DNA of 64,000 nucleotides, from positions 71,821-135,820 of the forward strand of contig JBMNFY010000004.1 in assembly GCA_050949565.1 (NCBI GenBank). Direction: 5' to 3'. Origin of the DNA: Kiritimatiellia bacterium. GTDB taxonomy: Bacteria > Verrucomicrobiota > Kiritimatiellia > RFP12 > UBA1067. The position numbers and the translations under genes were made by a program. Positions 13,170 to 58,501 of this stretch are shown here, piece after piece; within the stretch, counting starts at the first letter, position 1, and each line of letters opens with the position of its first letter. The notes beneath the pieces are model-generated. The model did not search any database. It was not told where the DNA came from and worked only from the letters and a program-made list of their open reading frames with translations.

Positions 13170-13918
13170 GGTAATCGGTTGACATAAGGGTAATCGGTTA
13201 GTGACAGGGAGGGTGCTCGGTTTTTTTCACACGAAGGCACAAAGGACACGAAGGTTTTTTGGGAGGCAGGGCTCGGGTTTATTTAACCACGGAATACTGA
13301 ACATACGGAAAGGCACAGCTCTGCTGTTTCACGCGAAGGCACGAAGATTAGAGGGCGAGTGTCCCCACGAGCCGCCTTCCGCTGCGCGGAAGGATGGGAG
13401 GGACGAGCGTCGCTCGTCCGCGGGCAAGCAGACGCTTGTCCGGTACTTAGCAAGCCTGACAACTGGACTTGCGGTGACAAGCGGTATTCCGCACGACGCC
13501 GCTTTTTGAGCATGAGTACGGCGGCAGGGCTGTGCGCAAAAGCGGTGCCGCGACCCGCGCACAGCGCGGCTCTTGTCACCGCACTCCAGATTTGGACGAC
13601 AAAGGGACAGGTATTTAGACCATGGAAAGTTGAGCGTTGGGCGTTGGGGTAATCGGTTAGTGACAGGGGGCACGCGAGTTTAGTGCGTGTTTTGTGCGTA
13701 TGCAACTGGAGGCGGGCGTCCCCGCCCGCTCTGTGAAAGGTCGATCGAGATTCCGATGCGCGGTTTGGTTTCCAATGGAAGTGGGCGCATCAATCTTTTG
13801 CAAGACACGTTGTTGCGGGCGAGGACGCCCGGCTCCAGTTCTCTGCTCTCCTTTTCACCAGAAACGCATAATCTTCGCACTCCCTGTCGCTAACCGATTA
13901 CCCGATTACCCGATTACG
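13170..13918. repeat. Large intergenic mosaic repeat cluster (REP hairpins, REPINs, short tandem repeats)
   Basis: REP composite 13351-13441, module 13539-13587, REP pair 13704-13840, GGTAATCG repeats on the left and inverted CCGATTAC repeats on the right. Confidence 0.85.
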
Positions 13919-22704: not shown

Positions 22705-22805
22705 GAGGGGCTTGCAAAACCCCTTGTGACATGGGCGTCCCGCCCATGAAACACGGGCAAGATGCCCGTGCCACACCTGTAAGCAAGGGGTTTTGCAAGA
22801 GCCTC
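22705..22805. repeat. 101-bp palindromic element: REP doublet inside TTGCAAAACCCC...GGGGTTTTGCAA arms
   Basis: Hairpins CATGGGCG-TCC-CGCCCATG and CACGGGCA-AGA-TGCCCGTG; near-identical copy at 57813-57913. Confidence 0.9.
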
Positions 22806-27921: not shown

Positions 27922-28268
27922 GGTTAGGGACAAGGGTATGCGAAGGACATGCGTTTCTGATGAAAAGGGGGATACTGGTTTTGGACATGATTTCCCGCTG
28001 CGCGGGCGTATAAAGGTTGTGCCGCGTGTGGCGCGGCGAAAAAATTGGAGTGCGGTGACAAGAGTCGCGCTGTGCGCGGGTCGCGGCACCGCTTTCCCTC
28101 CGCGCACAGCGCGGCTCTTGTCACCGCACAAATTTCGAAAGCAGACACTTGTCCAGTGATAGGCTAAACACCTGTCCTTTAGTTGTAGACCCACGACGTT
28201 CGACTCGCGACTTTCGGCTGGAGCAGCCCCCAAGAAACCTCTGTGTCTCCGTGCCTCCGTGGTGAAAC
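27922..28268. repeat. Intergenic mosaic repeat cluster
   Basis: CTTTTCATCAGAAACGCAT module (inverted, 27922-27970), GGAGTGCGGTGACAAG module 28047-28095 with partial inverted copy 28101-28129, CTCTGTGTCTCCGTGCCTCCGTG repeats. Confidence 0.8.
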
Positions 28269-56388: not shown

Positions 56389-56438
56389 GAGCGCAGATAA
56401 CATAAACTACAATCGGTTAGAAACGCAGAGGTTTTGAT

Positions 56439-56659
56439 GGATGCGGCGTGACCGCCGCCGGGAGGGGCAAGCGTCTGCTTGCCCGCGGACGAGCAGACGC
56501 TCGTCCCTCCCGGTGCTCAGCAATGAACCCTGAAACCATCCTTCCGCACAGCGGAAGGCGGCTCGTGGGGACACTCGCCCTCCAGTGCTACCGGTCTGGG
56601 CTCGCGGAGCACTGGGAGGGTCAAGCGTCTGCTTGACCGGCGGCGGTTACGCCGCCATC
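56439..56659. repeat. REP cluster bounded by inverted repeats GCGGCGTGACCGCCGCCG / CGGCGGCGGTTACGCCGC
   Basis: Doublet 56460-56511, hairpin plus REP 56540-56583, single REP 56613-56638 containing the hydrolase stop codon. Confidence 0.85.
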
Positions 56660-58501
56660 TTTACACTCGATCCCGATTGGGATGAACTGTCGAGTCCGCT
56701 CAAAGAGTTCGCGCGTCCAGGCTTCGCCGTAGTAGCTATGACCGGCGTGTGCGATCAGATGCGCCGTGTACGGGATACCGTGTTTACGGCAATACCGCTC
56801 ATACGCGGCGCGCGAACCTGACGCATCGGGGTCGGAGCCGCCGAACACAAAAAGGATTGGCCGCCGGAATGTGCGGAAGCGCTTGAGTACATCATTTTCC
56901 CAAGCGGCTTCGGCCGCGCTGCGCGTCTCCTGCTTCACGAGCGCCTTGGCGACCATGTTCGTCTGGACTTTGCCGCGCAGGATTTTGCGCCACGTTTCAG
57001 GGCGTGTCAGTTTACGCGCATAGGTGAGTAGCATGGCACCGGTCTTGCGGATGCCGGTGGCCGCGCTGCGCAGGTCGCCCATCGATTCGGCGGACCAGAG
57101 CACCAAGCGGTCGATGCCGGGTTCATGCGCCGCCAGCGTGATCGCCACTTTGCAACCGGAACAGATGGCGACGACGCGTATCGGTGCGTCGGCCGGCAAT
57201 CGCGCTCGCAGTTCCGCCAGCGCGGCACGCGCGGCGTCGGCCATGCCGGCGATCGATGCCTGCGACGCTGTGCCGTCGCTCAAACCGCGGCCGATGAAGT
57301 CGAGCCGCAGGCAGAGGTCGCCTTGAGCCGCGAGCTGGCGCGCGAAGCAGGTGAAGAGCCGGTGCGGCCCAGTGCGGTCGCCCGACCAGCCGTGCAGAAA
57401 CAGGGTGCCCGCGCACGGCTCACCCGGCGGCCGGTCTAGAATGGCGCGCACCGCGCCCTCTGCGGTCGGCAGCGTGATCAACTCGGCACCGGCTGTTTGT
57501 GCGTCGAGTGAAAGTGTTGGCGCGGCGACAGGCGGAGCGTTCAGACGGTCGCCCAGCCAGTCGACGCTAGCCGTAATCAATGCGTTAAGGTCCACATGGC
57601 CGACGGTGTTCCAGAACGGCGGGTAGCGCACGTCCAGCGTCGTCACGTCGTCACCAGCGGCCGCACTCACCTCTGCCGCTGTCCGCGCGTCGTGTCCGCC
57701 TGCGCTCACACAGAGCGGGAGTCGAGCGCGTGTTTCGTGCTGTGCTAAGCTCCCGACTCCCCCCCCCTTTTCATCAGAAACGCATGATTCTCGCTCGCTT
57801 CTGTCATCAATCGAGGCTCTTGCAAAACCCCTCGTGGCATGGGCGTCCCGCCCATGAAACACGGGCAAGATGCCCGTGCCACACTTGCAGGCAAGGGGTT
57901 TTGCAAGACCCTCAACCGTTAGCTTGTGCAGCCAATTGTACAACGCGCTGGTTACGGGGTAGCCGTCGAGATCGACGCACTCACCGTTGCGCCAGCGGGC
58001 TTCCAGATCGGCCCGTCCTTCGCGCGCCTTGTCGTAGGCCACCATGTCATTGACCATGCGGCGTTGCAGGAGTTGGCGGATGAAATCAGGTCCGGCGACC
58101 GGTGCCCACAGCAGGCAGGCGGCCATGTCGGGGCGGCGCGCCGCCAGACGCAACGCCAGCAGTGCGCCGCAGCGCAGCCCGAGCGCGGCGCGCGGCACGT
58201 CAGGAAATTGATCCGCCAGCCAACTCCACGCTGCGTCGCAATCGTGCTCGAAGCCCTCCGGGTCTTGTTCTTCGAAGGCGCCGTCGGAGTCGCCGCAGCC
58301 GCGCAGATCAAAGAGCAGCGTGGCGATGCCCCGCGCCGCCAACGCTCGGGCGGTTTGCATAAAAGCCGGCAGGGCGCCCTTGCGCTCTTCGACGAGCGGC
58401 GGGATACATAACACGGTGCCACGCACGGTGTCCGGCACGAAGCAGGTAGCGGACAACGCGCGTCCGTCAACCGTCAGGAAAAAAGCATGTTGCGTACACA
58501 T
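56621..58501 (-). CDS. Fused double alpha/beta hydrolase (resembles exosortase-associated hydrolase 2 plus hydrolase 1) with an in-frame repeat insertion
   Basis: N half PPLVEERK, FDLRGCGDSDG, LGLRCGA; C half LHGWSGDRTGPHRLF, LDFIGRGLSDG, AICSG, AGHSY. Confidence 0.8.
   Translation of the reverse strand: MCTQHAFFLTVDGRALSATCFVPDTVRGTVLCIPPLVEERKGALPAFMQTARALAARGIATLLFDLRGCGDSDGAFEEQDPEGFEHDCDAAWSWLADQFPDVPRAALGLRCGALLALRLAARRPDMAACLLWAPVAGPDFIRQLLQRRMVNDMVAYDKAREGRADLEARWRNGECVDLDGYPVTSALYNWLHKLTVEGLAKPLACKCGTGILPVFHGRDAHATRGFARASIDDRSERESCVSDEKGGGVGSLAQHETRARLPLCVSAGGHDARTAAEVSAAAGDDVTTLDVRYPPFWNTVGHVDLNALITASVDWLGDRLNAPPVAAPTLSLDAQTAGAELITLPTAEGAVRAILDRPPGEPCAGTLFLHGWSGDRTGPHRLFTCFARQLAAQGDLCLRLDFIGRGLSDGTASQASIAGMADAARAALAELRARLPADAPIRVVAICSGCKVAITLAAHEPGIDRLVLWSAESMGDLRSAATGIRKTGAMLLTYARKLTRPETWRKILRGKVQTNMVAKALVKQETRSAAEAAWENDVLKRFRTFRRPILFVFGGSDPDASGSRAAYERYCRKHGIPYTAHLIAHAGHSYYGEAWTRELFERTRQFIPIGIECKDGGVTAAGQADA
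57813..57913. repeat. 101-bp palindromic REPIN-like element located in frame inside the hydrolase CDS
   Basis: Near-identical to intergenic 22705-22805; translates as EGLAKPLACKCGTGILPVFHGRDAHATRGFARA. Confidence 0.9.

Follow-up and report, generated by a model that had tools for sequence, protein, structure and literature searches.

We identified a gene for a 626-amino-acid (aa) hydrolase that has been lengthened in frame by mobile DNA in a Kiritimatiellia bacterium. The gene lies in a window of 64,000 nucleotides (nt), the whole stretch of DNA analysed here, which corresponds to C4:71821-135820 of a 4.66-Mb draft genome (G000; 21 contigs, 60% G+C); positions given without a contig name are those of the window. 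The open reading frame (ORF; 56621-58501, minus strand) contains a segment of 198 nt (57719-57916, minus strand, residues 196-261) that close orthologues lack. This segment combines a 101-bp palindromic, non-autonomous transposon (57813-57913, residues 197-230) with the remnant of a second repeat family (57719-57812, residues 231-261). The transposon has 20-nt terminal inverted repeats, target duplications, an empty site and a parent insertion sequence (IS) with the same ends, and is thus an IS-derived MITE (miniature inverted-repeat transposable element), which we call MITE1. Very probably, the protein gained its extra length when two non-autonomous elements transposed, one nested in the other, into the part of the gene that encodes a variable surface loop.

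An earlier reading of the letters of the window, hereafter the original prediction, had recognised a palindromic repeat inserted in frame in this gene. It had labelled the repeat ‘REPIN-type’, after the doublets of repetitive extragenic palindromic (REP) hairpins known by that name. The in-frame insertion is upheld by the evidence below; the label is replaced, because target duplications, an empty site and a parent IS with a DDE transposase point to an IS-derived MITE.

An insert of two repeat modules in a fused hydrolase gene

The hydrolase ORF reads through both repeat modules without a stop codon and yields the peptide quoted in the original prediction, which had put the gain at about 60 residues. 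DNA and protein alignments to insert-free orthologues bear this out: 66 codons stand in place of 18 nt (six codons, PQPCPA or PQAHPV), a net gain of 60 residues. The same alignments place the boundaries at 57719-57916, against the 57725-57913 proposed earlier. At this place, same-genus orthologues without the insert show WLH.LT-PQPCP.P-LCV..GGHD, and the window carries 66 different residues instead. Ten nucleotides at the right junction are reverse-complementary to what the orthologue has there, which we take as chance or microhomology.

The expected gap of about 60 residues is found in close orthologues. The insert is absent from the same-genus genomes G005, G001 and G006, whose hydrolase frames measure 557, 552 and 555 aa, and from the public protein P0002 (551 aa, 92–93% identical). 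It is present in G004, the genome of a sister species (93% identical), and in the 626-aa public protein P0001, which is 96% identical and stands for a cluster of 52 sequences. In a tree based on 530 ungapped columns, the window, G004 and P0001 form a clade with support of 99/97, and P0002 is its sister. A single insertion history after the split from P0002 therefore suffices. Among 121 aligned homologues, the loop is at its minimal length in 79, and the 71-residue version occurs only in the window and in P0001.

The second-family remnant (57719-57812), delimited by other copies and by a family alignment, has 43 other, more diverged copies in the genome (74–96% identity), and the family has 118 termini, 9 of them paired at about 250–330 nt. 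Within the remnant lies the 19-nt motif (57767-57785) that the original prediction had reported twice elsewhere in the window. Both recurrences hold, one at 13851-13869 (plus strand, one mismatch, with family termini at 13190, 13649 and 13901) and one inverted at 27949-27967 (minus strand, exact), where 0.01 recurrences are expected by chance.

MITE1 is directly flanked on the left by AATC (57809-57812), inside the second module, and on the right by AACC (57914-57917), its likely target duplication, beyond which one reads what resembles the terminal part of second-family copies. These flanks, together with the resumption of the second-family end, suggest that MITE1 is nested in the second module. 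The lengths of the pieces are all multiples of three (105 + 93 - 18 = 180).

We also considered the composite as one mobile unit and rejected this possibility, as no other locus in the genome aligns to the 189-nt composite across both of its modules. The nearest exception, C10:345073-345187, covers 116 nt and comprises MITE1 plus ~15 nt of adjoining spacer, not the second module. Because the two-module composite occurs nowhere else in the genome, the modules did not travel together. In front of second-family termini there is often a GCGGGCG-AGGA-CGCCCGC hairpin and in some cases a CACGGGCAAGATGCCCGTG hairpin that is also found in MITE1, which indicates that the repeat families of this genome share hairpin modules.

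Whether the insert is a surface loop, a question posed by the original prediction, was addressed by structure prediction. An AlphaFold2 model computed on the alignment of 121 sequences has a mean predicted local distance difference test score (pLDDT) of 87.6 and a predicted template modelling score (pTM) of 0.87, with both domains at a pLDDT above 90. Residues 209-250 fall below 50 and show no secondary structure. This predicted disordered stretch lies between a lid helix (185-193) and a strand (263-268) that leads into the conserved GGHD motif.

Unrelated expansions of 24–67 residues sit in the same loop of the hydrolase in other lineages, which marks the loop as a tolerant, recurrent insertion hot spot. 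Low-complexity expansions between residues 194 and 264 in other Kiritimatiellia lineages include runs like NAQRSTSNVQRSTFNAQ or HPTSNIQHPTSN; they seem to derive from other repeats, simple or interspersed. Among public proteins of 344-1096 aa, 29 were candidates for a match to the insert peptide (residues 197-262) and 6 of these reached E <= 0.001; six matches are too few for mapping the range of the insert-peptide family.

The gene that carries the insert is intact. It encodes two alpha/beta hydrolase domains, recognised by profile searches, and Pfam Hydrolase_4 and Abhydrolase_1 exceed their cut-offs in the 626-aa protein. The N-terminal domain (residues 6-209) matches TIGR03101 hydr2_PEP at 125.4 bits, under the curated cut-off of 202.75, and the C-terminal domain (residues 353-605) matches TIGR03100 hydr1_PEP at 110.4 bits, under the curated cut-off of 168.45. 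These scores suggest that the domains are related to the TIGR03101 and TIGR03100 exosortase A-associated hydrolases, here fused in one protein.

We identified a hydrolase match in 27 of 41 related genomes, mostly as one frame of about 550–600 aa. A public protein collection contains 203 matching proteins at E <= 0.001, and the best 120 of the 203 are mostly 530–600 aa long. Fused orthologues of 535–600 aa are widespread in Kiritimatiellia, and homologues carry Kiritimatiellia names from their sources. Judged from these sequences, relatives normally have the fused two-domain form and lack the insert.

Comparison of G000 with G004 gives a ratio of nonsynonymous to synonymous substitution rates (dN/dS) of 0.16 for the whole gene, 0.17 for the N-terminal domain and 0.15 for the C-terminal domain, at a synonymous divergence (dS) of 0.22. 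The host gene has thus been under purifying selection since the insertion. As the original prediction proposed, a peptide has been added to an intact gene in the manner of the Rickettsia palindromic elements (RPEs), with close orthologues that are free of the insert.

Both insert junctions also occur in the independent assembly G004 and in the P0001 cluster (52 members). Public runs listed as containing the stretch number 20; they stem from 14 digester, sludge and landfill studies, and 6 are RNA libraries. In four of four runs (one DNA run and three RNA-library runs), contigs bridge both junctions and so reach the element from both sides (for example, X15 at 56621-57842 and 57861-58145; X16 at 57298-57840 and 57834-58501). 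The contigs of these four runs contain no joint that skips the insert. All of them break within the repeat, and none crosses the core of the element (about 57842-57861).

Two further features of the hydrolase lie outside the insert. The position of the nucleophile elbow is occupied by an invariant Arg in the N-terminal domain (G-L-R-C-G, residues 108-112) and by an invariant Cys in the C-terminal domain (A-I-C-S-G, residues 445-449), where the GGSDPD and AGHSYY motifs are conserved. Judged from the alignment and the model, these residues suggest that the N-terminal domain may be non-catalytic and that the C-terminal domain may be a Cys-nucleophile hydrolase. The 3’ end of the gene overlaps another high-copy repeat block (56410-56665), each position of which has 100–300 blastn matches in the genome. 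This block supplies the stop codon and the final ~14 codons, and the resulting tail is unlike that of the orthologues. Residues 617-626 have a pLDDT below 50 in the AlphaFold2 model and are predicted to be disordered.

MITE1 and its parent insertion sequence

MITE1 is a small, multicopy element without a transposase gene. We identified 323 blastn matches to it in the genome, including fragments. We count 95 of them as near-full copies, defined by a match over 85 or more of the 101 nt with identity no lower than 80%; 52 lie on the plus strand and 43 on the minus strand. One of these is the intergenic copy at 22705-22805, noted in the original prediction as nearly identical. The two copies share an identical 44-nt core and 92% identity over 101 nt (blastn), and 0 of 100 shuffles gave a match. 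The intergenic copy is flanked by CTCT on both sides and is orthologous in G004, with 0 differences in 101 nt. As single-stranded DNA, MITE1 is predicted to fold at -38.4 kcal/mol (z = -7.9) into a long outer stem that encloses two inner 8-bp hairpins.

Thirty-seven copies can be followed from end to end. They share the terminal inverted repeats GAGGCTCTTGCAAAACCCC... and ...GGGGTTTTGCAAGA(G/C)CCTC, and 29 of them are exactly 101 nt long. A direct repeat of at least 4 nt abuts 25 of the 37 copies (19 of exactly 4 nt and 6 of 5 nt), as against 0 of 37 in an offset control. The duplicated tetramers vary between copies, and the flanks are A+T-rich.

At C7:62568-62668, MITE1 lies between GGGG and GGGG in G000, and the corresponding site on contig C60 of G004 is empty and carries a single GGGG (L043, L052). 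Because this site is filled in one genome and cleanly empty in the other, MITE1 moved after the two lineages split.

The same termini bound 11 loci of about 1650–1722 bp. In the one locus examined throughout, the 20-nt terminal repeats are perfect, the left end includes about 96 nt of MITE1, and the ORF matches the Pfam families DDE_Tnp_1, at 36.9 bits against a cut-off of 23, and DUF772, at 35.2 bits against 23.1. Flanking direct repeats of at least 4 nt occur in 7 of the 11 copies. The genome thus holds an autonomous element that has both the ends of MITE1 and a transposase, and from which MITE1 is presumably mobilised in trans.

A 4-bp target duplication is typical of IS5-group elements. 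The parent IS resembles the IS5/IS1182 group in its DDE_Tnp_1 and DUF772 transposase, its length of about 1.65 kb and its short terminal inverted repeats. It differs in being a diverged relative by score and in that its left end holds a complete MITE-like hairpin.

Other host genes and slow divergence of element copies

The 101 bp of MITE1 and a 4-bp target duplication add up to 105 bp, exactly 35 codons. The majority consensus of the element is stop-free in five of the six frames, and individual copies have a mean of 4.38 open frames, against 2.02 (sd 1.14) in shuffles. In-frame insertions can survive because of this 35-codon increment and the five stop-free frames, and most insertions of MITE1 into genes would neither shift the frame nor truncate the product.

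We screened the 95 near-full copies for stop-free frames no shorter than 250 aa in which the element is preceded by 60 aa or more and followed by 30 aa or more. Inspection by eye and Pfam searches reduced the 23 resulting candidates to six real genes with an internal MITE1, including the hydrolase. Four of the others have an empty site in relatives. They encode a fumarate hydratase, in which one Fumerase match spans the insert; SbcD, in which the insert lies between Metallophos and SbcD_C; an FtsX/MacB permease; and a glycosidase-like protein of 1202 aa. The glycosidase-like protein has 35 extra residues in G000 and G004 relative to the same-genus orthologues in G002, G003, G001 and G006, and the flanks align perfectly. 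The sixth gene is a 1364-aa ORF resembling Eco57I/N6_Mtase methylases, whose probable in-frame insertion is indicated by the open frame and by domains on the N-terminal side of it.

Among these host genes, MITE1 is read in three different frames. The insertions in SbcD and fumarate hydratase are less than 5 kb apart (G000 C17:1847219-1851961). Only 6 of 95 near-full copies are genic, much less than the fraction of a bacterial genome that is coding, which indicates that insertions into genes are mostly avoided or lost.

Copies of MITE1 diverge more slowly than the DNA around them. In the hydrolase gene, G000 and G004 differ at 118 of 1603 positions flanking the insert, against 0 of 197 in the insert, where about 14 differences are expected. 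Pooled over four genes, in-gene copies differ at 2 of 394 nt and their flanks at 360 of 6739 nt. Six copies outside genes show 0/101, 2/101, 0/101, 0/100, 1/99 and 1/84 differences, with flanks that are 0.8–7.3% diverged; a further orthologous copy has about 56 extra nt in G004, and another copy is absent from G004. Over the orthologous copies of the two genomes (L022-L024, L026, L031, L032, L039, L047, L051, L053), 6 of 980 nt differ, where about 40 are expected.

Relative to the flanks, divergence of MITE1 is about tenfold lower in genes and about sixfold lower outside them, and it is below the synonymous rate. As copies outside genes are about equally conserved, the conservation is a property of the element and not of the hydrolase gene. 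Departures from the MITE1 consensus are, copy by copy, common to both genomes, so simple homogenisation fails as an explanation. Selection on the hairpin, recombination and assembly effects are candidate causes of the slow divergence.

Alternative origins and known palindromic elements

We favour the following history of the hydrolase locus. A copy of the second, MITE-like family would have landed in the loop first, of which a 93-nt remnant is left, with the loss of six ancestral codons. The 101-bp MITE1 would then have inserted into this remnant. MITE1 itself would be an internal-deletion derivative of the ~1650-bp IS5/IS1182-like IS in the same genome, and its mobilisation in trans would be the work of the DDE transposase of that IS. 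Insertions of this kind would persist if the extra residues end up in a disordered loop that tolerates them, in this protein between the lid helix and the strand that precedes GGHD. The insert peptide is most likely a tolerated passenger and not a new functional module.

Several points weigh against this history or qualify it. The second-family remnant has no recognisable left terminus, and 18 ancestral nt are missing, so the history includes at least one deletion. The insert is thus not the product of a clean cut-and-paste event, and extra deletions must be assumed. The target duplication at the hydrolase site matches at only three of four positions. The IS transposase scores below the NCBIfam cut-offs for IS1182 (88.4 bits against 270) and IS5_4 (68.8 against 140), and the family assignment is correspondingly approximate. 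Mobilisation by this transposase is deduced from the genome and not from experiment. RNA-library contigs may contain DNA and do not prove transcription, and translation of the insert is presumed. Finally, a purely neutral passenger does not predict zero differences in the insert between G000 and G004.

This last point leads to the possibility that the insert transposed as described and is now functional, either as a protein loop or at the nucleic-acid level, for instance as a strong mRNA or DNA hairpin situated between the lid and the N-domain core, with its sequence held by selection. Such a role would account for the 0 differences in 197 nt at a gene dS of 0.22 and for the low pooled divergence of in-gene copies; the composite also has a stable predicted RNA fold (-109.7 kcal/mol, z = -8.1), and it has been kept in three lineages. 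We nevertheless regard a function as unlikely, given that copies outside genes are conserved to about the same degree, that the peptide is predicted to be disordered, that other lineages carry unrelated insertions of 24–67 residues in the same loop, and that different genes use three different reading frames of MITE1.

There is even less reason to think that the long ORF is an artefact, either of repeat misassembly that joins two genes or of a dead gene whose frame is open by chance, and we give this reading hardly any credence. In favour of this reading, the genome is a draft in 21 contigs and MITE1 occurs in many copies, within which short-read contigs end. The same junctions are nevertheless present in G004, in the P0001 cluster and in contigs of all four runs; the insert-free relatives have the same fused two-domain architecture as their norm; dN/dS has been 0.16 since the insertion; and the flanking domains are predicted at pLDDT above 90.

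A REPIN origin, in which a doublet of REP hairpins was mobilised by a REP-associated tyrosine transposase (RAYT, of the Y1/HUH type) and landed in the gene by chance, is very improbable, although the genome has several candidate components of such a system. The MITE1 core consists of two 8-bp hairpins within the long outer stem. Seven matches to Y1_Tnp occur in the genome, five of them above the Pfam cut-off, and a 351-aa protein matches REP_Tyr_transpos at 53.7 bits, which is under the curated cut-off of 80. On C10, a Y1 fragment with an HVH motif lies between 63-bp tandem arrays of MITE1 core hairpins. Y1 transposases of the IS200/IS605 type are not known to duplicate their target, whereas 25 of 37 MITE1 copies have target duplications (most of 4 bp) and a clean empty site is available. 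The terminal inverted repeats of MITE1 are identical to those of the DDE-transposase IS (about 11 copies). Its REPIN-like features are equivocal: the outer stem is the IS terminal repeat, and the arrays beside the Y1 fragment contain core hairpins and not the 101-bp unit. No copy abuts the best RAYT-like gene, the nearest full copy being about 1.2 kb away with another ORF between. We therefore rejected a RAYT route for the 101-bp unit in favour of descent from the parent IS, which accounts for the element with no need of the RAYT-like genes. The inner hairpins of MITE1 may have a REP-like life of their own.

The array-bearing locus (L016, C10:219031-222219) is an N6-adenine DNA methylase-like gene (GNPPF motif) interrupted by the Y1 transposase-like fragment. 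Its 63-bp arrays comprise 3.8 and 2.9 copies on either side and give long in-frame repeats of the type GTGVSPV.HHGQDAHATN.

MITEs that lie in frame within genes are already known, and MITE1 is a new family in a new phylum. RPEs are palindromic elements described in frame within Rickettsia genes that encode proteins (Ogata et al. 2000, 2002; PMC10969869, PMC2229807). In the features these papers describe, MITE1 is similar: it is a multicopy palindrome found both between genes and in frame in conserved genes, it adds a peptide and leaves the gene intact, and it occupies sites compatible with the fold. The comparison concerns the mode of action and not RPE sequences, and the host belongs to another phylum (Kiritimatiellota). 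For MITE1, one can see the parent IS as well as a target duplication of 4 bp and an increment of 35 codons. As RPEs are described there, MITE1 also differs in using three reading frames and not one conserved peptide, and its share of near-full copies in genes (6 of 95) is far below that reported for RPEs.

The 107-bp form of Correia/NEMIS, the 127-bp ERIC and the 168-bp Yersinia YPAL are described as open-frame MITEs that are fused into genes (PMC2229807). According to that description, they share with MITE1 the IS-like terminal repeats, target duplication, hairpin body, stop-free frames and occasional in-frame fusion. Set against the same description, MITE1 differs as a new sequence family in a new host lineage and in combining a 3n increment with five of six open frames.

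REPINs are characterised as high-copy, mostly extragenic hairpin doublets mobilised by RAYTs (Bertels and Rainey 2011, PMC3116915). The genome studied here has RAYT-like genes, one of them flanked by arrays of MITE1 core hairpins. The terminal inverted repeats, target duplications and DDE-transposase parent of MITE1 are not among the features by which that account defines REPINs.

In a full-text literature search (supplements excluded), we found no paper linking Kiritimatiellia with MITEs and none combining the terms MITE, in-frame and ‘multiple of three’; a search for Kiritimatiellota and REPIN returned general REPIN papers only.

The whole chain from parent IS to MITE, nested insertion and retained longer protein can be followed here in a single genome. 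With its dated presence and absence among close species, the hydrolase locus is a clean natural example of mobile DNA lengthening a protein loop with the gene kept alive. Annotation of Kiritimatiellia and related genomes from anaerobic digesters should watch for repeat-derived peptides, such as GTGILPVFHGRDAHAT or GMGVPPMKHGQDARAT, in predicted proteins.

A bolder reading, which we advance only tentatively and consider doubtful, is that MITE1 has been shaped for harmlessness to reading frames, encodes nothing but disordered peptide, and exists in copies that are possibly constrained at the nucleotide level. If this is true, the conserved hairpin of MITE1 would itself serve some purpose in DNA or mRNA, and the MITE1 family would continually supply Kiritimatiellia proteins with new surface loops. 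The 35-codon increment and the slow divergence of copies offer a testable way into the question of whether evolution has led some MITEs to do their hosts no harm.

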